From: a virus
Virus genome (UHGV): UHGV-1269212
Strand: one strand, 5' to 3'
DNA length: 39,691 nucleotides
In this document: positions 1-36,492 of the stretch, piece after piece
Position numbering within the stretch: position 1 is the first letter of the stretch
How the letters are laid out: the number at the start of each line of letters is the position of its first letter
Notes under the pieces: model-generated
Databases searched by the model: none
What the model saw: only the letters and a program-made list of their open reading frames with translations
What the model was told of the DNA's origin: nothing
Made by a program: the position numbers and the translations under genes

Positions 1-290
1 GACCAGTAGGACCAGCAGGACCAGCAGGAGCAGTAGGACCAGCAGGACCAGCAGGCGAAAAAGGCGATCCAGGAGTAGCAGGACCGAAAGGCGACAAGGG
101 AGAACCGGGCGTACAGGGACCTGCGGGACCAAGTTACACTCTTCCAGCGGCGAACAAAACAACGCTGGGCGGTGTGAAACAGATGGCTTTGATTGCAGAT
201 TTGTCCACAGAAACAACAACTGACCTGAAAAATAAAATCAATGAGATTCTTGCGGAGATGGGAAAACAGGGGATCATGGCGAATCCATAA
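1..290 (+). CDS. Collagen-like (Gly-X-Y) repeat protein, C-terminal part; the 5' part is at the window end (39535..39691). Position between MCP and head–tail connector suggests a capsid decoration or head-fibre protein
   Basis: In-frame [41 protein letters not shown] then a non-repeat C-terminus and stop at 288-290. The frame continues exactly from the last partial codon of the window. Confidence 0.6.
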
Positions 291-1253: not shown

Positions 1254-1571
1254 ATGACGTTGCCAGAATTAAAAGACAAGTTAAAATCACTCAATCTTCC
1301 GATTGCGTATCGTTGTTTTGCAGTCGGTCAAGTACCAGAATTACCGTACATCGTATACTATGTGGACGAGGATATCGGATTTTATGCGGATGACACCGTG
1401 TATTACGAGGGATATGCCGTCACGATCGAGGTATACACAGATCAGAAAGACTTGCAGTTAGAGAAAAAAGTAAAGGAACTATTAAACAGTAATGAACTCC
1501 CGTATGAATCGTACGAGAGTTTTTTAGAATCTGAAAATATGTATTTGAAAGCATATGAAATTGAAATATAG
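1254..1571 (+). CDS. Hypothetical tail-completion / head–tail joining component
   Basis: 105-aa acidic protein between the gp10-like gene and the major tail protein; call rests on synteny only. Confidence 0.35.
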   Translation: MTLPELKDKLKSLNLPIAYRCFAVGQVPELPYIVYYVDEDIGFYADDTVYYEGYAVTIEVYTDQKDLQLEKKVKELLNSNELPYESYESFLESENMYLKAYEIEI

Positions 1572-1583
1572 GAGGTAAAGAAC

Positions 1584-2153
1584 ATGGCAGAAAAAGAAAA
1601 CAAAGTGGAATTTGGCTTAAGAAACTGTTATTACGCCGTTATTACAGTAGATGAGGGCGGAAAAATCACATACGGATCGCCCAAGAGATTACCGGGGGCG
1701 GTAAGTATCACATTCGACAAAAGCGGCGATCTGATCCGGTTTAAAGCGGATGACATTGATTATTACACCAACGCAAATAATCAGGGATACGAGGGTACAC
1801 TTACGCTTGCAAGAGTACCGGAAGAATTCCGGACAGAAGTGTTAAAAGAGGAGAAAACAGAAAAAGGTGTGATTCTCGAAAACTCTGACGCACAGGTAGC
1901 GAATATCGCACTGATGTTTGAATTTCAGGGAGATGCCAAGGCAACTAGACACCTCTTTTATTACTGCTCTGTAAACAGACCATCTGTCGGAAGTACAACA
2001 AAAGACAGTGGAGAACCGAACACAACAGAACTTTCGCTTGTGGCAAGTCCGAGACCGACAGACAACTTAGTTAAAGCATCCACAGCAGCAGGAGTTGACG
2101 AAACAACATATAACTCTTGGTATACAACAGTATATGAAAAATCGGGGGAATAG
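1584..2153 (+). CDS. Major tail protein
   Basis: GGAGG RBS; 189 aa; sits immediately upstream of the chaperone/tape-measure pair; followed by a strong hairpin. Confidence 0.6.
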   Translation: MAEKENKVEFGLRNCYYAVITVDEGGKITYGSPKRLPGAVSITFDKSGDLIRFKADDIDYYTNANNQGYEGTLTLARVPEEFRTEVLKEEKTEKGVILENSDAQVANIALMFEFQGDAKATRHLFYYCSVNRPSVGSTTKDSGEPNTTELSLVASPRPTDNLVKASTAAGVDETTYNSWYTTVYEKSGE

Positions 2154-2155
2154 CA

Positions 2156-2188
2156 CCCCCTGAAGACCTCGCCTTGGTAGGCAGGGGG
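2156..2188 (+). terminator. Post-major-tail hairpin: CCCCCTG-19 nt loop-CAGGGGG. It is part of a conserved roughly 75-nt element that also follows the capsid gene
   Basis: 7-bp GC stem starting 3 nt after the TAG stop; the downstream block AAGGCAAAAGTAGGTAAA is conserved with 39481-39517. Confidence 0.5.
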
Positions 2189-2254
2189 AAGATTGGAAAG
2201 GCAAAAGTAGGTAAAGCGAAATAAAGGGCGGAGTGATCTGCCCAAATAGAAAAA

Positions 2255-2629
2255 GTGGAGGATGTTATGGAAAAAACAATTTACATTGACGAAAAACAAG
2301 TGAAATTAAAATCAACAGCAGCGTTGCCGAAGAGATATAAAGCGCAGTTTGGAAGAGATTATTTTGCAGACCTGATGAAAGTAGCGAAAGTGTTTGGAAA
2401 AGGAACGAAAAGGAATTTTGGAATACAGGATATTTCTTTTGCTTCTCTTGACCACATGGACATGGAAGTATTTTACGACATCATCTGGACAATGGCTAAA
2501 ACAGCAGATAGGACGATTCCTGATCCATTGGAGTGGCTGGATGGGTTCGAAGTATTCCCGCTCAATGAAATCATGGGAGAAGTAAAGGATCTGCTTACAG
2601 ACACCATGCCAACAAGTAAAAAAAAATAA
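2255..2629 (+). CDS. Tail assembly chaperone (gpG-like)
   Basis: 124 aa between the major tail protein and the tape measure; ends ...PTSKKK* inside an A9 run. Confidence 0.6.
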   Translation: MEDVMEKTIYIDEKQVKLKSTAALPKRYKAQFGRDYFADLMKVAKVFGKGTKRNFGIQDISFASLDHMDMEVFYDIIWTMAKTADRTIPDPLEWLDGFEVFPLNEIMGEVKDLLTDTMPTSKKK

Positions 2630-2835
2630 ATGATAAAGATTCATCGAGTGGCGAACCGTTCACAAATGAATCTTTTTTTTATGTTTGCCGACAGGTTGGA
2701 TTAACCAGCGAAGACATGGAAGAAATGACCATTGGGGATTGCTTGGACTATGTACAGGAGTATATCGATAACCAGAAAAAGGATGAAAATCCTACTGCGA
2801 GAAAAGCAACACAGGAAGATTTTGATAATTTTTAA
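2255..2835 (+). CDS. Tail assembly chaperone, programmed -1 frameshift product (gpGT-like)
   Basis: A9 slippery run at 2618-2626. The -1 frame is open from 2620 to the TAA at 2833-2835 and encodes ...INDKDSSSGEPFTNESFF...TSEDMEEMTIGDCLDYVQEYIDNQKKDE.... The downstream ORF has no start codon of its own. Confidence 0.5.
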
Positions 2836-2847
2836 AGAGGTGAGAGA

Positions 2848-5800
2848 GTGGCGAATAAGAAAATAAAAGGAATCACAATTAAATTCGGTGCGGATACAAT
2901 GGCGCTCAGCAAAGCTTTGAAATCCGCGGAAGATACATCAAAAAGTCTTGGTAGCGAATTAAGCTCTGTAAATAAATTATTAAAATTTGACCCGAAGAAT
3001 ACGCAGTTGCTTGCACAGAAACAGGAGTTATTAAGTAAACAGGTCGAAAATACCAAGGAAAAGCTGGAAGCCTTAAAGCAGGCACAGGGAGAAGTAGAAA
3101 AGAAGTTCAAATCTGGTGACATCGGAGCGGAAGAATACCGAGAATTTCAGAGGGAAATTGCGAAGACGGAACAGGATTTAAAATCTTACACCACGCAGAT
3201 TAGTCGAATGGAGACTGAGCAGAAATCCCTAAAAGAAAGCACGAAGCAGTTGCAGACGCTGTTTGAAGCAACCGGAAAGTCCCTAGATGATTTTCAGGAC
3301 GTGCTCGGCACAAGGCTGACAAATGCTATAAAAAATGGAACTGCAAACAGTGACGATCTGACAGTAGCGCTTAACAAGATAGGAAAAGAAGCGTTTGGGG
3401 CAGAAACTGACCTGTCAAAGATGAAAGCTACATTGAATAAGGTAGATGACGGGGCGAGTATTGATGAAGTGAACAACGACCTGAACGAGATGAAGAAGAA
3501 TTCAGGTGAGGCAGGAGAAGCACTGGACGGTATCGGAAAAGGAATTGTTGCAGGAAACATGATGCAAGCCGCTGAAATCATAGCAGATGCAGGGCAGAAG
3601 ATAAAAGAGTTTAGTGACAACGCAAAAGAAGCATTTAATGAGGTAGATGCCGGATCTGATGCAATCATAACAGCGACAGGTGCTACAGGGAAGCTTGCTG
3701 AAGGAATGGATAATGTCTATAAAAGCATTGCGTCCAGCCTTCCGATAGACAACCTTGAAAACATCGGAAAAGTAATTGGGGAGATGAATACGCAGTTCGG
3801 GTTCACCGATGAAAAATTACAACATGCATCTGAAAAAATGTTGAAGTTTTCGGAAATTACTGGATCCGATGTGGTAGCATCAACGCAAAATGCAAAACAG
3901 GCGATTAGCGTATTCCACATGTCGAGTGATGATCTAGACAGCGTACTTGATGATGTTGCAAAAACAGCGCAAGACACGGGCGTATCTGTAGACGATCTAT
4001 TTCAGAAAGCGATTGAAGGAGCGCCACAGCTACAAGAATTGGGATTGAGTTTCTCGGACTCAGTAAAGCTGTTGGGGGCATTTGAGCAGGCAGGAGTAGA
4101 CGGGTCTGCCGCATTAAGCAGCTTATCAAAGGCAGCGGTAAATTATGCAAAAGACGGGAAATCACTCACTGACGGTTTGGCAGAAACGCAGGATAAAATT
4201 TTGAATGCGACTGACCAGACGGAAGCATTAAACGCCGCCGCCGAGGTATTCGGAACAAAAGGTGCTGTGAGGATGGTAGATGCCATCCAAAGAGGGGTTC
4301 TAAACCTGAACGACCTAGGAGGCGCTGCCTCAGACAGTCAGGGGACTGTGGAAACGACTTTCAGCAATACTTTAGACCCGATTGACGAAGAAACGGTTGC
4401 GCTAAATAACGTAAAGTTGGCTATGGCTGAGTTCGGGAGTGCCATTTCAGAAGCAGTAGCCCCAATTCTGGAAGCACTTGTTCCTATCATTCAGAAAGTT
4501 GCAAAGTGGTTTAGCAGTCTTTCTGGAACAAGCAAGACTATTATAGTCGTAATCGGTGGGATTGCAATGGTGATTTCGGCTTTACTACCGATTCTTGCGG
4601 TTGTAGCTGGTGGAATAGCAGCGGCTGGAGGTGCAATGGCATTTTTGACAGGAGTGCTATTACCAGTAGCCGGAATTATTGCCGGAATTATTGCAGTGGT
4701 TGCAGCAGTTGTGGCAGTAATAAAAAACTGGGGAGATATCACAGATTGGCTGTCCGAAAAATGGAATGCATTTAAAGATTGGATGTCTGACCTGTGGGAC
4801 GGTATCAGCGAGAGTGCGTCTGAAGCATGGGATGGAATCAAAGAATATTTTTCCAATTTATGGGATTCAATTTCACAAAAGGCGTCGGAAGTATGGGAAA
4901 ATATCACAGGGACTTTAAAGGATACATGGGATGGAATTAAAGAATATTTTTCCAATTTATGGGATTCAATTTCAAAAACAGCGTCTGAAACATGGGAAAG
5001 CATTGTAGGAACGTTAAAAGAAGTATGGGATGGAATTGTTGGTTTCTTTCGGGATACATGGGAAACGATATGCGACGTTATGGAGGGTCCGCTGAAATTT
5101 ATCGAGGGAACAATAGGTGCGATAATGTACGCAATTTATGCTGTGATATATACGGTTTGGGAAGTTATAAAATTTGCATTAAAAAGCGCATGGGATTGGA
5201 TAAGCGATACGGCAAGTGCAATTTTTACATCGATAAGCGAATTCTTTTCGGAAACGTGGGAGAAAATTTCCAAGGCAACATCAGAAGCGTGGGAAACAGT
5301 AAAACAAACAATAAGTGATGTGTGGAACTGGATAAAAGACACTGCAAATGCAATTTTCTCTCCTGTTGCCGAATTTTTCGTAAATCTGTGGAATGGAGTT
5401 AAAAATACAGTAATAGTTGTGTGGAGCACAATAAAGCAAGCGCTTAGTGACACATGGAACTGGATTAAAGATACAGCAACTTCGATCTTCGTTCCTGTAG
5501 CAGAATTTTTTACAAATACATGGAATGGAATCAAGGATACTGCAACCGGAATCTGGAACAGCATTAAGGGCACGCTCGGTGGAATATGGGATTCGATCAA
5601 AGAGAAAGCTATGGACGCTTTTTCTTCTGTTTGGAAGTTTATTAAAGACGGATTTAACAATCTTAAGGATACTCTTGGAGGAATCGTGAAAGGGATTGCG
5701 AACGCAATTGTGAAACCAATAGGTGGAGCAGTAAATGGCGTAATTAATGGTGTAAACTGGGTGCTTGATAAAGTAGGATCGGACAAGCAATTTGCATTGT

Positions 5801-15572: not shown

Positions 15573-15791
15573 TTTACAACACACTTACAACAAAAATGCC
15601 AACAAAGCCCGTAAAACCGTCAATAATATTTAAGCAATCTTAAGATTTATTGATTTTCAAAGATTCCCGTGGTTGACGCAAAAACTTCAAAAAACGTGTC
15701 AACCACGGGCTTTTTGTCGAATAAAATGCAATCAAAAAAGAATTGATTTCAGGTAGAATAATCGAACCGTTTACAACACACTTACAACAAA
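15573..15791. repeat. attP-like region: 22-bp perfect direct repeat TTTACAACACACTTACAACAAA at 15573-15594 and 15770-15791
   Basis: Identical 22-mers 197 bp apart flank the terminator. The second copy overlaps the integrase stop codon (TTA at 15782-15784). Confidence 0.45.
15666..15715 (+). terminator. Intrinsic terminator with a 12-bp perfect stem (CCCGTGGTTGAC / GTCAACCACGGG) and a TTTTT tail
   Basis: Seen directly; terminates the rightward late/lysis operon inside the att region. Confidence 0.7.
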
Positions 15792-16936
15792 TTGATTTCT
15801 ATTTTTTCAATCTCATTTCTTAAGTCTTCCAATGTCCGGTGACCATATGTGTCATTTGTAATATCACCTATCTTATGTCCAAGCATTCTTTTTCGATCAT
15901 TCTCCGCGACTTTATATTTTTCGCACAATTTTGAAAATGTGTGCCGGCAATCATGTGGAGTATGCTTTTCAATTCCAAGTGCGGACAGTTGCGCATACAT
16001 CTTATCCCGGAATATATCGATTCTATCAGGCAGGATATAACCCTGTACTTTTATCCTGTGCTTTACAAGATTTAAAATCCCGGAATAAATCGGAACGGTT
16101 CTGTTTTTCCCAGCATCCGTTTTGATACCACCCAAAAAATAACGTTCTTTCAAATGGACTTCTAAAGTCTTATATTCAGAGATTCGAAAGCCGGAGTAGC
16201 ACATGATCAGAATCATCTCGGACACTTCATTTTCTTTTGTTTCCCACAATTTCTTCAAATCTTCATCAGTAAATGGAATGCCATGCTCGTCATCGTCATC
16301 CTGTGTGATTTCGACATAAGACGAATAATCTTTTGTACATAAATTGTTTGCCATAGCATACTTGTACATGTGATAGTATAGATTTTGGATGTGTTCTATG
16401 CTGGCGTGTCTGAGTGGACAAGCGTCCATTACTTCCTGTAGATCGTCTGTAACAAGCTCTGCGAAAATTCTGTTGTGTAGGGCAGCAGAGTTCTTGAATC
16501 CTGCGCGTAGCGTATATTCTAAGCTGGTACGTTTTACTTTTTTCGCATCGTATTCATGCCCAAACTTTTTAACATTGAATTTCCGGTATACTTCCGCAAA
16601 TGTTAATTGTGGCTCTTCCTTTGATTTAATTCCTTGCACCTGATTATAATTTGCAAGCAGAGACTGGATAAAATCCTCCGCATTCTTTTTGTCATCCACC
16701 TGGATATCATTTTCCATGCCGGGAGTATAGGTGCCGGCTTTGTATGCTGTCAGTACTGCGAAGCCGATCATCCAGTCAGAAACATAGCATATTGCTTTCT
16801 GTGGCTTCATTTGCCCGTTTTCGTATTCTTCTTTAGCTGGCGGGTAAACGCCGTAAGGATTGCGGCGCCCTTTGCCGAGAAAGCGTATCTGACCGTAACC
16901 ATTGGGCAAACGAGGATGCTTTTTTCTTTTGGCCAT
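15782..16936 (-). CDS. int: Tyrosine recombinase / phage integrase
   Basis: AAAGGAGATGATTAT-ATG RBS at 16936; 384 aa; C-terminal HDCRHTF...LGHK...YGH catalytic motifs (R, HxxR, Y). Confidence 0.85.
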   Translation of the reverse strand: MAKRKKHPRLPNGYGQIRFLGKGRRNPYGVYPPAKEEYENGQMKPQKAICYVSDWMIGFAVLTAYKAGTYTPGMENDIQVDDKKNAEDFIQSLLANYNQVQGIKSKEEPQLTFAEVYRKFNVKKFGHEYDAKKVKRTSLEYTLRAGFKNSAALHNRIFAELVTDDLQEVMDACPLRHASIEHIQNLYYHMYKYAMANNLCTKDYSSYVEITQDDDDEHGIPFTDEDLKKLWETKENEVSEMILIMCYSGFRISEYKTLEVHLKERYFLGGIKTDAGKNRTVPIYSGILNLVKHRIKVQGYILPDRIDIFRDKMYAQLSALGIEKHTPHDCRHTFSKLCEKYKVAENDRKRMLGHKIGDITNDTYGHRTLEDLRNEIEKIEINLL

Positions 16937-17097
16937 ATAATCATCTCCTTTAAATTTAGGTATAAAAATAACAGCCAGCGCAAAACAAACGTTCCGCTTG
17001 CATGACTGCTCCGAAGATGATACAATATTCTTGGATTTCAATCGCATATCTTCGGATGTGTAGACCGTCTCTGTTGGCGCAGGGGCGGTTTTTTTAT

Positions 17098-18134: not shown

Positions 18135-18620
18135 TTATATCATTTCCATAACTGCTAAATTAGGAATAAAATAAATAACATAATTATCTACAGTAGTACA
18201 TTCACCATATTTTCCAGTATAGCAGTCAATAGCTTCCTGCAGATATTCTTCTGTGACATGTAGATGTTCTGCAACTTCATATCGATTCTGGCATCCAGCA
18301 TTAAAAGCGGATATGATACCACGCAACCCGATCATTCGGTTATATCCGCGTAATCGACCTTTTTGTTCTTGCTTTAGATTTTCAATATTCATTTGGTCAA
18401 TGATATTTCCAACAGCAGTGAAATGATGTCCCATTTCTTCTGCGAGTACACACGCTTTTTCTGTTGATGTTCTTAACCTATCAGATATTGCAATTCTATT
18501 TCTGAATATTCGTCCATCACTCCCGGACAGAGGCTTCTCACGGACTACGAGTCCGCTATTTTTCGCCTCTTCTAAAAGTTCCTCATAAATTGTCATCGTA
18601 TCACTCCCATTCAGAGTCAT
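18135..18620 (-). CDS. immA: ImmA/IrrE-family zinc metallopeptidase (anti-repressor protease)
   Basis: HEXXH motif AEEMGHHF; 20-nt overlap with the upstream XRE repressor gene, as in ImmR/ImmA pairs. Confidence 0.7.
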   Translation of the reverse strand: MTLNGSDTMTIYEELLEEAKNSGLVVREKPLSGSDGRIFRNRIAISDRLRTSTEKACVLAEEMGHHFTAVGNIIDQMNIENLKQEQKGRLRGYNRMIGLRGIISAFNAGCQNRYEVAEHLHVTEEYLQEAIDCYTGKYGECTTVDNYVIYFIPNLAVMEMI

Positions 18621-19092
18621 CCATCATGATGTCATCATCATGTTTTCTCATTTCATTGGTTACTTTAATATCGGTACGTTCGTGAGCCGCCATTACTGAT
18701 AGATCATCATCCATTTGTTGTATAGATAGCAATTGTTCAATGTAATTATCGGCTTTTCTTCTATTCATCTCAATCAACTGCAAATACTTTTTAAAATGAG
18801 TCTTTTCTCTCGAAGATAATGCGCCAATGTTATTAATTATATTTTCGAGATTATCATTTGTAAATACGTTTTCAATGTATTTATCGGTAGCTGAATCTAA
18901 ATCCATGAGATAGGTAGGTGAGCAATCAAAAATTTCTGACATTTTCGCAATAGTAGAACGTTTTATATTCTTAACTCGCCCATTCTCATATTTTGCTATC
19001 GCAGATTTTTGAAGCCCCAACTTTTGTGCAAGTTCTTCTTGGGTGAGCCCAACTTCTTTTCTTTTGCTCTTTATTCTATCTGACATTGCCAT
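18601..19092 (-). CDS. immR: XRE-family HTH repressor (CI/ImmR-like)
   Basis: N-terminal HTH (GLTQEELAQKLGLQKSAIAKYENG); divergent from the cro-like gene; AAAGGAG RBS. Confidence 0.8.
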   Translation of the reverse strand: MAMSDRIKSKRKEVGLTQEELAQKLGLQKSAIAKYENGRVKNIKRSTIAKMSEIFDCSPTYLMDLDSATDKYIENVFTNDNLENIINNIGALSSREKTHFKKYLQLIEMNRRKADNYIEQLLSIQQMDDDLSVMAAHERTDIKVTNEMRKHDDDIMMDDSEWE

Positions 19093-19112
19093 GTTTCTGT
19101 TCTCCTTTCGAT

Positions 19113-19239
19113 GTGTCTTAATTTTACTACATTAAATACGAGATTGCAAGCTTTTTGTGAAAAAGTGTCTTAAAAATATAAAAAAGTTGTTGACAATAAA
19201 GACACCCAGTGCTATTCTGTAAGTGTCTTAAACAGACAC
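19113..19239. promoter_or_regulatory. Immunity switch region. Leftward PRM: TTGCAA 19144-19149, TAAAAT as ATTTTA 19121-19126. Rightward PR: TTGACA 19190-19195, TATTCT 19213-19218. Operator dyad GTGTCTTAAACAGACAC 19223-19239. Half-sites GTGTCT at 19113 and 19165, AGACAC at 19200
   Basis: Hexamers with 17-nt spacers read directly; the GTGTCT-N5-AGACAC dyad overlaps the PR +1 region. Confidence 0.55.
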
Positions 19240-19475: not shown

Positions 19476-19492
19476 GTGTCTAAAAAAGACAC
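19476..19492. promoter_or_regulatory. Second operator GTGTCTAAAAAAGACAC (same dyad and spacing as 19223-19239) immediately upstream of the Rha antirepressor RBS
   Basis: Perfect 6-5-6 dyad 14 nt upstream of ATG 19506. Confidence 0.55.
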
Positions 19493-19505
19493 AGAAAGAG
19501 GAAGT

Positions 19506-20273
19506 ATGAACAATTTAACAGTATTCGAACAAAATGGGCAGCTACTCACCGACAGTAGAGAAGTAGCAATGATGGTAGAGCTTGAGCATTACAATCTTAT
19601 CAAAAAGATAAAGTCTTATGCAAAGCATCTTACTGACGTAAATTTTGACGTGAGTGAATATTTCATCGAATCAGAGTACAAAGACAGCACAGGAAGAACG
19701 CTTCCATGTTACCTCTGTACAAAGAAAGGATGCGACATGATCGCCAACAAAATGACCGGAAAGAAAGGTGTCATTTTTACAGCTACATATATTGAAGCAT
19801 TCGAGAAGATGAAAGATTTCATCGAAAAGGGAACACAGTACGTTGGCATTCCATTAAAAGAACAGGTGGAATCACTGGAAGTGGTAGCAAGCATGTTAAG
19901 AATGAACGATGCAAGCAAATTGCTGATGCTGAAAGGGTTCTATGATTCTTACCATATTCCGACAGGATTCTTACCGAATTATGAGTTTAACGGCAATAGG
20001 GAAATGAAGTCGCTCACAGCACTGCTGAAAGAAAATAATCTCGGAATCAGTGCGGTGCAGTTCAATAAGAAACTTTTATCTGCCGGAATCTTAGAAGAAA
20101 AGGAACGCCAGTCAAGTAAGGGAAGAGTGAAGAAGTTCAAATCACTGACAGAGAAAGGTTTGAAATACGGCGAAAATGCAGTCAGTCCTCATAATCAGAA
20201 AGAGGTGCAGCCGTTGTATTACAGTGACACGTTCAATGAACTGTTTGAGGTTGCGACAGATTCGTTGGCGTAA
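19506..20273 (+). CDS. Phage regulatory protein Rha-family antirepressor
   Basis: AGAGGAAGT RBS; N-terminus NNLTVFEQNGQLLTDSREVAMMVELEHYNLIKKIK matches the Rha (pRha) N-domain; 255 aa. Confidence 0.55.
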   Translation: MNNLTVFEQNGQLLTDSREVAMMVELEHYNLIKKIKSYAKHLTDVNFDVSEYFIESEYKDSTGRTLPCYLCTKKGCDMIANKMTGKKGVIFTATYIEAFEKMKDFIEKGTQYVGIPLKEQVESLEVVASMLRMNDASKLLMLKGFYDSYHIPTGFLPNYEFNGNREMKSLTALLKENNLGISAVQFNKKLLSAGILEEKERQSSKGRVKKFKSLTEKGLKYGENAVSPHNQKEVQPLYYSDTFNELFEVATDSLA

Positions 20274-20308: not shown

Positions 20309-20599
20309 ATGGGATACACGGAACATGAAGTAGGTGACACTGTGATTATGACACAAGAAGAGTGCAACGAATACTTATTAAAACACGAAAATTTTATTCG
20401 CTGCTCTCGGTGCAAAAATTTAATACACAGTTCAAACAAATATTGTCAATATTGTGGATGTCCTAATGAAAAAGAACTCCAAGCTATTAAAAAAAGCAAG
20501 GAGCTCAGTTCCGATATTGTGCTTAATGGAAAGATTATTTCTCAAGCTGTTCGGAAAGCCATTTGTGATACAACTCAAGAAGACGGACGTTCATTTTAA
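20309..20599 (+). CDS. Small zinc-ribbon protein (CSRC...CQYC)
   Basis: GGAGGTGAG RBS; 96 aa; 3' end overlaps the convergent gene 20535..20759. Confidence 0.4.
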   Translation: MGYTEHEVGDTVIMTQEECNEYLLKHENFIRCSRCKNLIHSSNKYCQYCGCPNEKELQAIKKSKELSSDIVLNGKIISQAVRKAICDTTQEDGRSF

Positions 20600-20759
20600 A
20601 ACTGAATCCAGCTATAAATCCGGCTATTTCGTTAAAAGCATTAGGGTCTCCAAGAGATGTTTCAAGCGTTGGATAATCCTCATCATTAACGCCGTTGATA
20701 TAGTCGATATCTTCTTGTGTTAACGATTTTTTAAATTCGTCAAAAGATTTAAGTACCAT
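20535..20759 (-). CDS. Hypothetical acidic 74-aa protein, antisense to the early operon
   Basis: GGAGATCGACT-ATG RBS on the minus strand; driven by the consensus leftward promoter in repeat module 1. Confidence 0.4.
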   Translation of the reverse strand: MVLKSFDEFKKSLTQEDIDYINGVNDEDYPTLETSLGDPNAFNEIAGFIAGFSFKMNVRLLELYHKWLSEQLEK

Positions 20760-20761
20760 AG

Positions 20762-20871
20762 TCGATCTCCTTTCTTAAATACTCGGCATTGGCAGATGCC
20801 TGTAAGTAAATTATAGGAGATAAGGAAACAAATGACAAGAAAGATTCAACAAGAAAGAGGTGAGAAAGATG
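20762..20871. promoter_or_regulatory. Repeat module copy 1. Leftward promoter TTGTCA (as TGACAA, 20833-20838), 17-nt spacer, TATAAT (as ATTATA, 20810-20815). Dyad GGCATTGGCAGATGCC at 20785-20800. RBSs in both directions
   Basis: About 90% identical to 21165-21273; consensus hexamers read on the minus strand. Confidence 0.55.
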
Positions 20872-21030
20872 TTAAAAAAGATTTACAGTGAACTGCTCCT
20901 TATAAGGAGAGAAATAAAGCAGCTCAACAAGACTTTGGAAAGAAATGTTGAACTGCAAAATAAAATGCGTGATGAGCCAATGTTTATACCGAGCTACTCA
21001 CGTTCGTCCAAAGAACATACTGCTGAATAA
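20869..21030 (+). CDS. Hypothetical 53-aa protein
   Basis: AAGAAAGAGGTGAGAAAG-ATG RBS; not in the ORF track (<60 aa). Confidence 0.3.
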   Translation: MLKKIYSELLLIRREIKQLNKTLERNVELQNKMRDEPMFIPSYSRSSKEHTAE

Positions 21031-21161
21031 CATGATTTGAGTATGTTCTCTACATCATCACCAGACAATGGTTTGTGCATATTATTTTGGCTCATTTGAG
21101 CCATGGCCATCAATGCGGATTTCGCCAAATCTACAGCGAGTTCCTTGTTTGATTTATCCAT
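20994..21161 (-). CDS. Hypothetical 55-aa protein, antisense to the early operon
   Basis: AGGAGATGTAGTT-ATG RBS on the minus strand; driven by module copy 2; 3' end overlaps 20869..21030 convergently. Confidence 0.35.
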   Translation of the reverse strand: MDKSNKELAVDLAKSALMAMAQMSQNNMHKPLSGDDVENILKSCYSAVCSLDERE

Positions 21162-21164
21162 AAC

Positions 21165-21273
21165 TACATCTCCTTTCCTAAATACTCGGCATTGGCAGAT
21201 GCCTGTAAGTAAATTATAGGAGAGTTGGAAACAAATGACAATAAAGATTCAAAAAGAAAGAGGTGAGAACATG
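21165..21273. promoter_or_regulatory. Repeat module copy 2. Leftward promoter TTGTCA (21236-21241) / TATAAT (21213-21218). Dyad GGCATTGGCAGATGCC at 21188-21203
   Basis: Near-identical to 20762-20871. Confidence 0.55.
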
Positions 21274-21444
21274 AGTGAAACATTAGAAAACATCACAAGA
21301 AATCAGGAAGAGAAAAGATTGGAGGATTTTAAAAGGATTGCAGAGAACTGGGACAAGCTTCCGGAAAGAGCACAGGGAAAGATCGATGGGATTATTTCGA
21401 TGGCTGCATCTGCATTTTTAAAAGAAACAAAGAAAGCAGGATGA
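21271..21444 (+). CDS. Hypothetical 57-aa protein
   Basis: GAAAGAGGTGAGAAC-ATG RBS, the same leader as gene 20869..21030. Confidence 0.35.
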   Translation: MSETLENITRNQEEKRLEDFKRIAENWDKLPERAQGKIDGIISMAASAFLKETKKAG

Positions 21445-32142: not shown

Positions 32143-32527
32143 ACCGAACAAAGATAGACTTATCCGGATTGAGAACCAGATACAAGAACTCAGTGAACGG
32201 GAATCGACTGTTGTCATGGGGAAGGTAACGGGATCTAGCGCAGATTTTCCGTACACCGAAGTGAGAACGTCTGTACAAATGTATGACCCTTACGAAGAAG
32301 AGAATGTAAGACGGCAGATCAGAAGAAAAGAAGCGGATAGGCTACTGATTCTGAAGGAGCAGAAAGAAGTTGAAGACTACATAAATGGGATTGATGATCC
32401 GGAGATTAAGGAGATATTCGAGTTGCACTATCTTGAGGGGAAAACCCAGCAAAAAGTCGCAGATGAAATTGGATATACCCAGGCGCGAGTATCGCAGATT
32501 ATAAGCGCACAGCTTAAAGATTTATAG
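32114..32527 (+). CDS. Late-gene transcriptional activator (sigma-70 region-4-like; ArpU/RinA-class)
   Basis: TTG start 6 nt after GGAGGTGA; C-terminal HYLEGKTQQKVADEIGYTQARVSQI HTH; sits just upstream of the packaging genes. Confidence 0.5.
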   Translation: MDKKTLKKFRPNKDRLIRIENQIQELSERESTVVMGKVTGSSADFPYTEVRTSVQMYDPYEEENVRRQIRRKEADRLLILKEQKEVEDYINGIDDPEIKEIFELHYLEGKTQQKVADEIGYTQARVSQIISAQLKDL

Positions 32528-32605
32528 CATTTATATTTTACTTATGCTATAATTATTCTAGAACGATTGTATATTGTTCTAAAACAATCTTTCCAAACAT
32601 TCAGA

Positions 32606-32648
32606 ACACCGCCGGACTTTTACCCTTTCTTGTCTGGCGGTGTTTTTA
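32606..32648 (+). terminator. Intrinsic terminator ACACCGCCGGAC-14 nt-GTCTGGCGGTGT + TTTTTA
   Basis: 12-bp stem with one G·U pair, followed by a U-run. Confidence 0.6.
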
Positions 32649-32649
32649 T

Positions 32650-32693
32650 GCCGTGGTCAGTTGGGACAAGCAGGTTCGATCCCTGCACACGGC
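32650..32693 (+). ncRNA. tRNA-like minihelix: acceptor stem (GCCGTG/CACGGC), a short D-like hairpin and a canonical T-arm (GCAGG-TTCGATC-CCTGC), with no anticodon arm
   Basis: Base-pairing read directly; TTCGATC T-loop; 44 nt. Confidence 0.35.
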
Positions 32694-32869
32694 TATTGTG
32701 ACATATTACTGCATACCGGGAGCAGTAAAGAGTCACATGTGATATCACAAAACGCAGATATCCGCAGATCTGCAAAAGACAACAAATAAAAAATAGATTC
32801 GGTAATCTATATTTAGTGTCAGTACCCGAGTGCGGATAGGGTAAAGGATGTCAATAAAAGGCATCCTGA

Positions 32870-32943
32870 TCGGACATAGCTCAGTCGGTTAGAGCGGCAG
32901 CCTTATAAGCTGTGTGTCACGGGTTCGATTCCCGTTGTCCGGA
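32870..32943 (+). tRNA. tRNA with anticodon TAT (Ile; AUA codon)
   Basis: 74-nt cloverleaf: acceptor TCGGACA/TGTCCGG (U1·G72), D-arm GCTC-AGTCGGTTA-GAGC, anticodon loop CTTATAA, 5-nt variable loop, T-arm ACGGG-TTCGATT-CCCGT, discriminator A, no encoded CCA. Confidence 0.6.
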
Positions 32944-33050
32944 TTGTGGGCTACTGCAAGTTCCTCATTGTGTTAGAGAATCCAGTAAAGTTGCCAAGTT
33001 ACGTATTTTTGCAGTAGTCCTATAAATTTTAAAAACCTCTGAGAAAAGTA

Positions 33051-33079
33051 TTGACATATGGTTAACCATATGATATTAT
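33051..33079 (+). promoter_or_regulatory. Consensus sigma-70 promoter TTGACA-17-TG-n-TATTAT with a perfect 18-bp palindrome CATATGGTTAACCATATG (33055-33072) filling the spacer
   Basis: Hexamers and dyad read directly; AAGGAGGTGA RBS and ATG 33105 lie downstream. Confidence 0.6.
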
Positions 33080-33104
33080 ATACTTGTAAGGAGGTGAGAT
33101 ACAG

Positions 33105-33218
33105 ATGAGCAAGAAACGAAAGAAAAAAGAGAGCTTGCCAAGATTGATAATCGAATCGTTAATCGCAACTGGGGCGCTATTAACTGGGATTGCCAATCTT
33201 ATAGAAGCTCTCAAATAG
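33105..33218 (+). CDS. 37-aa peptide MSKKRKKKESLPRLIIESLIATGALLTGIANLIEALK (polybasic N-terminus, hydrophobic/amphipathic C-terminus)
   Basis: Strong RBS 7 nt upstream; GGGGC-GAAA-GCCCC hairpin at 33224-33237 follows the stop. Confidence 0.4.
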   Translation: MSKKRKKKESLPRLIIESLIATGALLTGIANLIEALK

Positions 33219-33272
33219 GGGACGGGGCGAAAGCCCCAATCCTTAATAGAAGTATAGCTCATCTTGGAAGAA

Positions 33273-33437
33273 ATGAAAAGAACTAAATTCGGAGAATTGT
33301 TTTTATTGTTTGCAATCGTTTATTTTGTGGCATCTGATAAAAATATCTATTCATCCATTTTTCTTATTTTAGCATCTGTTTATTTATTGATAGACATAGT
33401 ACCAAGACTGTGGAAGGAGTGGAAGAAATGCCGGTAG
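33273..33437 (+). CDS. Small two-TM membrane protein (54 aa)
   Basis: ATG with a weak GGAAGAA RBS; very hydrophobic; not in the ORF track. Confidence 0.25.
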   Translation: MKRTKFGELFLLFAIVYFVASDKNIYSSIFLILASVYLLIDIVPRLWKEWKKCR

Positions 33438-34707: not shown

Positions 34708-36492
34708 ATGGACTTATCCCATATTAGCAGTCCGCATTTCGATACGGCTGTGCGTTATGCGGAAGATATCGTAAGTAGGAAAGTCCTGGTAAATATAGAC
34801 AGAGTACTTGCGTGCAAAAGATTTCTGGAAGATTTGGAGCGTGACGATCTGGATTTTCGTAGCGATCAATTTGATTTTGTGATTGATCTAATTGAGGGGA
34901 CCATCCACCACGTACAAGGTGAGGATAAGAATGGAGTGAGCTTTAAAGGTACTCCAATGTTATTGACGGATTGGCAGAAATTTGTATGTGTGAATCTGTT
35001 TGGATTCTTCCGGAAAGGCACAGACATTAGGCGTTTTAACGAAGCGCTTATTTTTTTACCAAGAAAACAGGGAAAAACATCCTTTAGTGCTGCGCTTGCT
35101 GAAGCAAAGAGTATTTTGGATAGATGTTCCGGTGCAAAGACATATATTGTAGCCAATTCCGTAAAACAGACAATGGAAAGTTTTGGATTTTTGGTAGATA
35201 ACGTTGAGACTTTACGCGGAGATGTTGATAAGTTGAGAATCCGAAACAACAATCAGGAGCACTCCATCCGTATTGATTTTGGAGATGGTACCGCAGAAAT
35301 GTATGCGATTGCCAACCAAGAGGACAAATTGGACTCTCTGAACTGTAACTGCCTGATTCTTGACGAGCTGCATTCCTGGAAGAGAGCAGCGGCAAAGAAA
35401 TATATACTGATGAAAAATGCTATGAAAGCGTATCGGAACAAGCTTTTGATTGGTATTTCTACGGCTGGTGATATTCCAGATGGTTTTTTAGCAAATAGGT
35501 TAAATACGTTACATGGAGTTTTGGATGGAACAAATACAGAAAAGGCGTATGACTCCTATTTTATTTTTATTTGCAAAGCAGATCAGGACAAAGAAGGCAA
35601 TGTTTTAAACAGCAAAGGCGAGATCACGACATTGGATGATCCGGAAGTATTGCAGATGTGCACGCCGTCAATCGGAGTCACTGTTACAATAGAAGACCTT
35701 ATGGATGATGCAGCGCAGGCAATGAATGAACCGCAGTTAAGGGCGGAGTACCTGAATAAAACTCTGAATATCTTTACAAATGCTCTGAATGCATACTTTG
35801 ACATTAACGAGTTCAGATCATCCGATGATGAATACAACTGGACACTGGAAGAGTTGGCGAAGCTCCCAATCACATGGTATGGCGGAGCCGACTTGTCGAA
35901 ACTTCACGATCTGACCGCAGGCGCAATTTACGGAACGTACAAAGATGTTGATATCTGTATCACACATGCGTTCTTCCCGAGGGCGGCCGCAATTAAAAAA
36001 GCGGATGAGGATGGTATCCCACTGTTTGGTTGGGAAGAGGATGGATGGCTGACGATGAGTAATACAGCCACAGTACTTCCGGATGACATTGTAAACTGGT
36101 TTATCTCCATAAAAAAGATGGGATTCAAAATAAAAATTGTTGGATTCGACAAGAAATTCGGACGAGAGTTTTTCTTAAAAATGAAAAAATCTGGATTTAA
36201 GATTCAAGATCAGCCACAGTATTTTTACGTGAAGTCTGAGGGATTCCGGCATATCGAAGTGAAAATGAAGAATAAGAAATTTTACTATCTACATTCGGAC
36301 GCTTTTGAATATTGCGTGCAGAACGTAAGGGCAATTGAAAAAGTGGATGACATGATCCAATATGAAAAGGTAGACGGAGACGGCGGCGTAAGACGAATTG
36401 ATTTGTTTGATGCCGGTGTCTTTTCATGTTGCCAGATGTTGGCTGACATGGCACTTGGAAATGCAGCAAATAAATGGTTAAAGAGAGAATAG
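34708..36492 (+). CDS. terL: Terminase large subunit
   Basis: 594 aa; N-terminal ATPase and C-terminal nuclease regions typical of Terminase_1. Confidence 0.85.
   Translation: MDLSHISSPHFDTAVRYAEDIVSRKVLVNIDRVLACKRFLEDLERDDLDFRSDQFDFVIDLIEGTIHHVQGEDKNGVSFKGTPMLLTDWQKFVCVNLFGFFRKGTDIRRFNEALIFLPRKQGKTSFSAALAEAKSILDRCSGAKTYIVANSVKQTMESFGFLVDNVETLRGDVDKLRIRNNNQEHSIRIDFGDGTAEMYAIANQEDKLDSLNCNCLILDELHSWKRAAAKKYILMKNAMKAYRNKLLIGISTAGDIPDGFLANRLNTLHGVLDGTNTEKAYDSYFIFICKADQDKEGNVLNSKGEITTLDDPEVLQMCTPSIGVTVTIEDLMDDAAQAMNEPQLRAEYLNKTLNIFTNALNAYFDINEFRSSDDEYNWTLEELAKLPITWYGGADLSKLHDLTAGAIYGTYKDVDICITHAFFPRAAAIKKADEDGIPLFGWEEDGWLTMSNTATVLPDDIVNWFISIKKMGFKIKIVGFDKKFGREFFLKMKKSGFKIQDQPQYFYVKSEGFRHIEVKMKNKKFYYLHSDAFEYCVQNVRAIEKVDDMIQYEKVDGDGGVRRIDLFDAGVFSCCQMLADMALGNAANKWLKRE

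Follow-up and report, generated by a model that had tools for sequence, protein, structure and literature searches.

In T4-type phages, mobile regulatory cassettes known as promoter-early stem-loops (PeSLs) drive the expression of early ORFans (Arbiol et al. 2010, PMC2839356; Comeau et al. 2014, PMC4122927), and the morons of lambdoid phages are extra DNA with its own promoter and an accessory protein (Cumby, Davidson and Maxwell 2012, PMC3594210). A further arrangement is found in the Listeria prophage phi10403S, where TerI, a gene of 65 amino acids (aa), is encoded within the early lytic module but on its opposite strand, and is expressed constitutively from its own sigma-A promoter; the TerI self-immunity genes are located in the early operon, and the Tab and Tai systems are reported to have a similar opposite-strand arrangement (bioRxiv 10.1101/2025.02.27.640495). 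Accessory loci of prophages are typically genes antisense to the lytic genes, according to Owen et al. (PMC7067206). Here we analyse a locus of the virus genome UHGV-1269212 (one stretch of 39,691 nucleotides, hereafter the window), in which two copies of a module of about 110 bp, each carrying a leftward promoter, a short dyad and ribosome-binding sites (RBSs), are set among five small genes, two of which (A and C) run against the surrounding early operon.

Our analysis leads, with moderate confidence, to the view that the module is a portable cassette for accessory genes, composed of a promoter, a hairpin and a Shine-Dalgarno (SD) sequence, that it is constitutive and probably active in the lysogen, and that it also serves as a recombination joint. 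The initial annotation had offered two options: an antisense or roadblock control layer, or leftward genes acting as lysogen-expressed defence or anti-defence accessories. The second fits best, with expression in the lysogen presumed.

A conserved promoter and a covarying hairpin

The two copies are closely similar, as first described: a repeat search returned a direct repeat of 102 nucleotides (nt) with 94% identity between 20765-20866 and 21168-21269, spaced 403 nt. On the minus strand, each copy contains the promoter TTGTCA-17-TATAAT (coordinates in Table 1) and, between the -10 box and the RBS, the dyad GGCAT-N6-ATGCC, which reads GGCATTGGCAGATGCC at 20785-20800 and 21188-21203 and has no other copy in the window. 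RBSs point both ways, with an SD sequence and a start codon on either flank: AAAGGAG stands 7-8 nt ahead of the ATG of A and of C, while AAGAGGTGAGAA precedes the ATG of B and of D. All these elements had been named in the initial annotation and are recovered here. Its description of the module as a bidirectional promoter, on the other hand, is not supported. The promoter scan gave no plus-strand match in either module, a rightward promoter within the module was rejected on these grounds, and the rightward part supplies only an RBS.

In the promoter scan, the module promoters are the two best matches between 17 and 23 kb, each agreeing at 11/12 positions. The whole window holds four such sites against a chance mean of 1.3; a lone 11/12 match is not far from chance, and the main support for the promoter is its conservation in other phages. 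As a test set, we used 114 unique upstream regions taken from matches to a leader pattern, with no selection for a promoter. The arrangement TTGnnn-16..18-TAnnnT was present in 97 of these regions and in none of the shuffles, and in 107/114 the -10 box stands exactly 5 nt before TACAGG, with a composition (in percent, n=114) of T94 A93 T89 A74 C65 T99. Such a fixed distance between promoter and dyad across phages weighs far more than how well the sites of a single genome score, and we predict a near-consensus sigma-A-type leftward promoter without a recognisable operator.

Further positions are conserved in the same 114 regions: CTCC at -15 to -12 (20819..20816 and 21222..21219, minus strand), at 65-73% per position, and a T at -4, in 86%. 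In the window, AUCUCC is the exact complement of GGAGAU in the SD region of A. By virtue of this complementarity, read-through transcripts, unlike those started within the module, could mask the RBS of A.

The dyad had been proposed to gate the promoter as an operator, a proposal that is not borne out. The comparison points instead to a conserved hairpin, with covariation in its stem over more than 100 phage contigs. The variants comprise more than 15 different stems with compensated pairs, including GGCAU/AUGCC, GGACA/UGUCC, GGUGUUG/CAACACC, GGCG/CGCC, GGCC/GGCC, GGCUA/UAGCC and CCGA/UCGG, the last with AAUUA/UAAUU outside. The loop is mostly CUGCCA, CUGGCA, CCGCCA or UGCA (89 variants), and the flanks UAC-A-GG and CC-GA-GUA are almost invariant, even where no search pattern imposed them. 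One contig (L034) contains three modules with three different stems within a single phage. Covarying stems, their diversity in L034 and the lack of relation to the GTGTCTT-type cI/Cro operators of the window together make a shared DNA operator very unlikely.

The covariation was quantified in two ways. Across 89 unique cores, the three inner pairs (3-5), which no search pattern constrains, were paired in 86%, compared with 43% for shuffled partners (maximum 54%), in an anchor-based count that is independent of the covariance model. The covariance model itself, built from 48 variants, retrieved 127 copies in a second contig set. In this alignment, which is fitted to the model and thereby somewhat favours structure, standard pairs occupy 97.2% of the cells (80% when shuffled), double-change cells number 158 (52 when shuffled) and the covariation score reaches 0.375 (0.080 when shuffled); with the register slid by 1-3 columns, at most 46% of the cells pair. 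Module 2 of the window was matched by the model with 98 bits, and also by the strict leader pattern.

With the dyad a fixed 5 nt after the -10 box, the hairpin should sit at the 5' end of the leftward mRNA. Starting from the usual seventh nt after the -10 box, the predicted mRNA would read 5'-ACA-GGCAU-CUGCCA-AUGCC-GAGUA, then a few nt, GAAAGGAG, about 7 nt and AUG; GAAAGGAG is almost invariant in alignment A2 of the leader variants. When 95 variants were folded from the predicted start, the median free energy was -6.1 kcal/mol, compared with -2.7 for shuffled sequences, and three unpaired nt preceded the stem in 72 of them, the 5' end being placed only by the fixed 5-nt spacing from the -10 box. 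The hairpin variant is also inherited with the leftward gene, 12 pairs breaking at its promoter-side edge. The fixed spacing and this co-inheritance tie the hairpin to the leftward transcript.

As a terminator, the hairpin was rejected: there is no U-tract on either strand, the stem has only 4-7 bp, and the terminator scan was empty in both modules. No family in Rfam 15 matches the leader, and with E up to 1 the only match within 19-23 kb is one to PYLIS_6 at chance level. This weak match lies at 20417-20512 (+), inside the ZnR gene, and scores 27.7 bits where the gathering score is 80 (E = 0.16); we take it as chance.

Reuse of the module and exchange of its neighbours

The window is the genome of a temperate siphophage of the Ruminococcus (Mediterraneibacter) gnavus phage group, and phiRM10, phiRgIBDN1, phiRg519T2 and relatives share 90-95% identity with it in the common parts. 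Rather than being special to this phage, the module is a common repeat in gut phage contigs. It stands in the same place in GenBank R. gnavus phages and in an Acetoanaerobium phage, always between a small leftward and a small rightward gene, and these genes vary by phage. Two scans of IMG/VR viral contigs gave, with the promoter pattern, about 85 true modules (1-3 per contig) and, with the leader pattern free of promoter constraint, at least 120 contigs, a second set in which much of the flank conservation is imposed by the search pattern. A genome-collection scan with ATACTCGG-N8-16-CCTGTA was too loose, returning 120 chance matches and 0 genuine ones, and the host evidence comes only from the GenBank phages, M. 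gnavus chromosomes and the Acetoanaerobium prophage. The initial annotation had considered that the module might be a common mobile repeat without promoter activity. It is a widespread repeat, but the promoter features are clearly kept.

Taking both contig sets together, about 72 unrelated small-protein families (median length 72 aa) stand behind the cassette. A transmembrane segment is predicted in 15/72, and several are zinc ribbons or families such as DUF2513, DUF2321, KTSC and DUF4145 (DUF, domain of unknown function). When 69 cargo representatives were searched against Pfam and PADLOC, every match was to a DUF or a zinc ribbon and none to a defence family. In the first set, 23 families occur solely to the left of the module and 16 solely to the right, and they combine freely.

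Where contigs share only one of the two flanks, the similarity comes down to the module alone, from the leftward SD to the rightward start codon (-50 to +55 around the -10 region). The right part of module 1 is conserved in alignment A1, with the block of homology stopping at the start of the rightward gene. In turn, phiRg519T2 and phiRgIBDN1 are without exactly 403 bp, comprising B, C and one module; their single module corresponds to module 1 up to GGTGAGAA and to module 2 beyond it, and in phiRg519T2 it is directly followed by D. Because the module is the only sequence common to otherwise unrelated flanks, it marks the site of cassette exchange by homologous recombination, and these comparisons indicate that it is a recombination joint where accessory genes swap between phages.

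Two modules typically enclose a rightward and a leftward gene whose 3' ends overlap (median 23 nt), and most leftward families retain one convergent partner. C is paired with B in 5/5 distinct pairs, B and C always forming a unit of 403/404 bp, another leftward family keeps the same partner in 8/8 distinct pairs, and the A family is partnered by ZnR in 3/6. A distant homologue of A, 32% identical, is present in the Streptococcus pneumoniae phage IPP16 (L373, KY065457), with its own promoter, no hairpin and the same alternating, overlapping layout. The early region of IPP16 (1300-4800) shows this alternation of small plus- and minus-strand genes, overlapping at their 3' ends, four times within 3.5 kb.

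In contigs L261, L266, L344, L289 and L303, as many as three cassettes form an array, at intervals of about 500-700 bp. These contigs carry a rolling-circle-type Rep (PF23343 REP_ORF2-G2P), and some also ParA or RNase H, so the cassette extends to mobile elements of another kind. There is an ATG within the -35 box AAATGACAA. In a module of L034 (about 2774-2850), this ATG opens MTIKKLKILADYFGVSV, the C-terminal half of an XRE-type helix-turn-helix (HTH), and at 21235-21270 of the window the sequence that it opens is MTIKIQKERGEN, which shares the reading frame of D. A possible origin of the module is the divergent control region of a cI/cro-type gene.

The genes and their place beside the genetic switch

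The features of the locus and of the adjoining switch are collected in Table 1. A and C are convergent with the rightward genes and overlap them at the 3' ends as first described, by 65 nt (ZnR/A) and 37 nt (B/C), and no terminator-like site was found behind A or C in the terminator scan. Several observations show how these open reading frames (ORFs) are kept. A matches phrog_7728 (E = 2.8e-5), its homologues being 74-99% identical; C matches phrog_13376 (E = 2.5e-5), and the substitutions seen in it are all synonymous, at third positions. In the homologues of both genes, the ends are conserved and the middles variable. For A, the homologue DNAs compared were identical, which leaves the codon-substitution test uninformative. 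The exact A and C sequences occur on at least 1000 contigs, M. gnavus chromosomes included, and C is likewise encoded against the early module, on its opposite strand, where a phage has another replication module and a serine integrase. Both GC and AT skew fall to about zero over 20.4-21.2 kb, as expected where half of the coding is on the other strand. Together with the annotation of these same genes in GenBank phages, the PHROG matches, the conservation at the protein level and the drop in skew indicate that the leftward ORFs are coding and that A and C are real protein genes. Of the initial annotation, the leftward promoter is supported, and so is the view of embedded leftward genes that are driven independently.

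That the five proteins have no recognisable family is nearly correct. None reaches the Pfam cutoff, while A and C match the PHROG families named above, which have no known function, and ZnR is near the threshold, matching Zn_ribbon_15 with 27.0 bits, just below the cutoff of 28.9 bits; phiRg519T2 and phiRgIBDN1 carry a zinc-ribbon annotation for it. B has no Pfam or PHROG match. In D, eight homologues show 62 synonymous and 25 non-synonymous codon changes, with 68 substitutions at third and 25 at first or second positions. AlphaFold2 gave confident helical models for A and C, with predicted local distance difference test (pLDDT) scores of 87.6 and 80.1, and a Foldseek search of both models against the PDB returned no fold match. 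In homologues of C and A (P0011, P0013 and P0005), gene callers often prepend 'MPSIMK...' or 'MPSKRERR...'. These extensions are the leader translated from an AUG that lies in the hairpin's 3' arm (AUGCC), an annotation artefact.

Table 1. Features of the module locus and of the adjoining genetic switch in UHGV-1269212
Feature	Position	Strand	Description
Integrase	15782..17047	-	Tyrosine integrase of ordinary phage type; lysogeny genes, family search
M78 peptidase-like gene	18135..18620	-	Lysogeny genes, family search
HTH_3 cI-type repressor	18601..19092	-	Lysogeny genes, family search
Putative PR	19190..19218	+	TTGACA-17-TATTCT with TG motif; promoter scan
ZnR	20309..20599	+	96-aa zinc-ribbon-like early-operon gene; convergent partner of A
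Gene A	20535..20759	-	74-aa leftward accessory protein; three helices predicted
Module 1, 3' part of leader	20760..20779	-	Spacer and SD AAAGGAG (20767-20773) for A
Module 1, leader hairpin	20780..20804	-	5'-UAC-A-GGCAU-CUGCCA-AUGCC-GA-GUA-3'; free energy -6.1 kcal/mol
Module 1, predicted transcription start	20803	-	A; placed from the -10 spacing
Module 1, promoter	20810..20838	-	-35 TTGTCA 20838..20833; 17-nt spacer; -10 TATAAT 20815..20810
Module 1, right part	20839..20868	+	A/T-rich, upstream of the -35 box; rightward SD AAGAGGTGA for B
Gene B	20869..21030	+	53-aa early-operon gene; convergent partner of C
Gene C	20994..21161	-	55-aa leftward accessory protein; helical hairpin predicted
Module 2	21162..21270	-	SD for C; hairpin 21183-21207; promoter 21241..21213 (-10 21218..21213, -35 21241..21236); rightward SD for D
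Gene D	21271..21444	+	57-aa rightward early-operon gene

The locus adjoins the genetic switch on its right side. GTGTCTT-type operators flank the putative PR, which is followed on the plus strand by a cro-like gene and then by a Rha-type antirepressor gene (19476..20273), and from PR to the end of the window all genes are on the plus strand except A and C. The promoter scan found no plus-strand match of at least 9/12 between 20376 and 23000, leaving PR upstream, so transcription from PR has to run head-on through both modules.

GTGTCTT/AGACAC is the apparent half-site of the cI/Cro operators, with repeats near PR at 19112, 19166, 19202, 19223 and 19235. A perfect dyad, GTGTCT-N5-AGACAC, lies at 19476-19492 between the cro-like gene and the Rha gene, with TTTTT after it on the minus strand, and could be a distal operator, a terminator halting leftward transcripts before cro, or both. 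Elsewhere in the window, an 11/12 promoter match, TTTACA-17-TATAAT, is located at 18864..18836 (-) within the cI-type repressor gene and points to the M78 peptidase-like gene. Another 11/12 match, TTGACA-17-TATTAT at 33051 (+), stands in the ORF-poor stretch 32527-33410 and precedes small genes ahead of a 594-aa ORF (34708..36492); this site may be a late or packaging-region promoter.

Proposed function, alternatives and known systems

In the mechanism that we propose, the promoter would fire constitutively, and A and C would be made both in the repressed prophage and early in infection, independently of PR. In B. subtilis, the nearness of a hairpin to the 5' end matters for mRNA stability. 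More generally, 5'-proximal hairpins stabilise bacterial mRNAs, and the primary papers on the ompA, papA and aprE leaders are found in a review (PMC3997798). The hairpin of the module, whose pairing is conserved, would most likely protect the mRNA from 5'-dependent decay and shield the RBS from the varying cargo. The leftward orientation would keep constitutive transcription out of the replication and lytic genes, and once the prophage is induced, the leftward promoters could be damped by PR transcription that meets them head-on. The block of about 110 bp is the exchange site for cassettes, and the second copy arrived with the 403-bp unit that is absent from the closest relatives. Between the modules, a PR-driven gene and a constitutive gene would face each other, which by its architecture is the layout of a defence gene with an early-lytic self-immunity partner.

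Several points weigh against this account. We infer the transcription start, the constitutive activity and the expression in the lysogen from the DNA alone. The strand evidence conflicts, as the counts of G-U and A-C (26 against 13) favour the promoter strand while the folding energies (38 against 55) do not. When folded with the RBS, the leaders of the window give z-scores near zero and alternative pairings with the SD region, pairings that other variants do not conserve. The conserved loop and the A/GA asymmetry exceed the needs of a passive stabiliser and may suggest recognition by something. With no terminator behind them and no deviant GC, the leftward genes are not classical morons; A and C lack a PADLOC, Pfam or PDB fold match, and no function is assigned to them. 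Finally, the co-inheritance of gene pairs may result from their position between two recombination joints alone.

Two other explanations concern the leftward transcript and its timing. The leftward promoters could mainly send polymerase or antisense RNA against PR, silencing leaky ZnR and Rha or throttling early lytic transcription, with the ORFs secondary. Without a terminator behind A and C, the leftward RNA should run through B, ZnR and the antirepressor gene to the dyad at 19492..19476, PR has no back-up promoter past the modules and must cross both, and antisense RNAs with immunity roles are known in prophages (PMC7067206). We nevertheless consider this distinctly unlikely: the cassette fronts about 72 unrelated protein families, the antisense targets vary between phages, conservation at the protein level is seen in A, C and many further cargo genes, close relatives manage without module 2, and over-expression of the Listeria TerI left the transcript level of the overlapped gene unchanged (bioRxiv 10.1101/2025.02.27.640495). 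Antisense or interference acting on PR might be a by-product or a component of the timing, and nothing specific supports a main role. It is also unlikely that the cassette genes are immediate-early takeover or anti-defence genes, like the PeSL-driven ORFans, rather than lysogen defence. A constitutive sigma-A promoter would fire on DNA entry too, cassette arrays occur in elements without an obvious lysogeny module, and PeSLs do drive early ORFans, but in the temperate phages examined the genes oppose the early operon, as expected if they are on while the lytic genes are off. The 15 cargo families with transmembrane segments argue in the same direction, such segments being common among superinfection-exclusion proteins.

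The remaining alternatives concern what the dyad is read by. A dimeric phage or host regulator could bind it as a DNA operator and gate both leftward promoters, and a perfect 5-bp inverted repeat just past the -10 box is indeed in the classic position for a repressor. We give this very little credence, as the half-sites change by compensation while the loop stays, one phage holds three different stems, and the flanks are asymmetric, with A on one side and GA on the other. The dyad is moreover confined to the modules and unrelated to the phage's own operator motif, and the cassette is found in elements with very different sets of regulators, Rep/ParA-type included. An RNA operator is doubtful, although it has more to recommend it. 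An RNA-binding protein or RNase would read the loop and the A/GA internal loop and co-control the cassette genes, for example in a shut-off after induction. This would account for a loop that is kept in most of the 89 variants while the stems vary, for flanks (UAC-A-GG and CC-GA-GUA) that hardly change outside the constraint of the search pattern, and for the fixed position relative to the predicted start. However, no gene co-occurs with the cassette across the backbones examined, flank conservation in the second set is largely imposed by the search pattern, and Rfam has no match. In a broader and tentative form, the leader would be an RNA operator uniting dozens of small genes in one regulon of gut Firmicutes phages, with the inter-module units as defence/self-immunity pairs, the leftward gene being made in the lysogen and its overlapping partner from PR on induction. 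If true, the leader would be a beacon to many TerI-like defence systems built on small proteins, a large reservoir in the human gut that is still unexplored.

The portable accessory-gene cassette that we favour can be placed among known systems by its parts. Like an integron attC, the module is an imperfect palindrome between small gene cassettes, whose outer parts and unpaired bases are conserved and whose paired centre varies. An attC-type site was rejected, since there is no integron integrase in the window, which has a tyrosine integrase, or in the other carriers, which have serine recombinases; attC-like exchange at a fixed point of the hairpin was also rejected, the breakpoints being at the module edges or scattered across the module. 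Unlike integron cassettes, every cassette here has its own promoter. The mRNA stabilisers of ompA and papA (E. coli) and aprE (B. subtilis) likewise have a short hairpin near the 5' end and a strong RBS after it, but they are single-gene leaders, whereas the motif of the module runs through a whole family, its loop and bulges conserved, and lies at a predicted 5' end.

As in a moron, the 403-bp unit is extra DNA relative to close relatives, and A and C would have their own promoter, here by sequence and conservation only. The differences are the missing terminator, the 3' ends that overlap convergent genes, a GC content of 0.355-0.385 in the region that does not deviate from the 0.35-0.43 of the flanks, and a promoter and leader that are a standard part common to many unrelated cargo genes. 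TerI resembles A and C in its setting. It is likewise a small opposite-strand gene in an early lytic module (65 aa, against 74 and 55 aa), with its own sigma-A promoter and an overlap with an early-operon gene. Its neighbours are conserved alongside it; the fixed pairs seen here (C with B in 5/5, A with ZnR in 3/6) may correspond to this, but linkage between two recombination joints would give the same picture, while neither a conserved hairpin leader nor a shuffling cassette in several copies, both present here, is described for it. A defence/self-immunity layout of the TerI kind is therefore something that A and C resemble by architecture only.

The PeSL is a parallel by architecture; no sequence similarity is claimed. 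PeSL-type cassettes are also characterised by mini-circles that arise when neighbouring motifs recombine. Both are repeated motifs with an A/T-rich stretch, a consensus promoter (sigma-70-type in the PeSL), a stem-loop, an SD and a start codon, both front small genes without known function in plastic regions, and in both, indels and replacements between close relatives end in the motif. PeSLs, however, belong to virulent T4-type myophages, and the module to temperate siphophages and other mobile elements of gut Firmicutes, where it points against the surrounding operon. PeSL stem-loops also take variable positions around the promoter and act as terminators, in contrast to that of the module, which has a fixed place in the transcribed leader, conserved flanks and loop, no U-tract and no terminating role. 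We therefore regard the cassette as a probable variant of a PeSL-like cassette, a moron or a TerI-like locus, whose leader motif was not found described in Rfam or in the R. gnavus phage papers examined, the latter being silent on promoters, on these genes and on the motif.

The mechanism is a familiar one, and the value of the cassette lies in being a practical beacon for many gut-phage gene pairs. The promoter-hairpin-SD unit offers a homology-free search handle for independently expressed accessory genes in gut phages and prophages, and the convergent overlapping pairs are candidates for experiments in Mediterraneibacter gnavus, which has been linked to inflammatory bowel disease (PMC10072058). 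Seen beside the PeSLs, the module would extend the express-and-shuffle regulatory cassettes of virulent T4-type phages to temperate ones whose hosts are Gram-positive bacteria of the gut, and add a 5' leader motif with covariation that has no Rfam counterpart.

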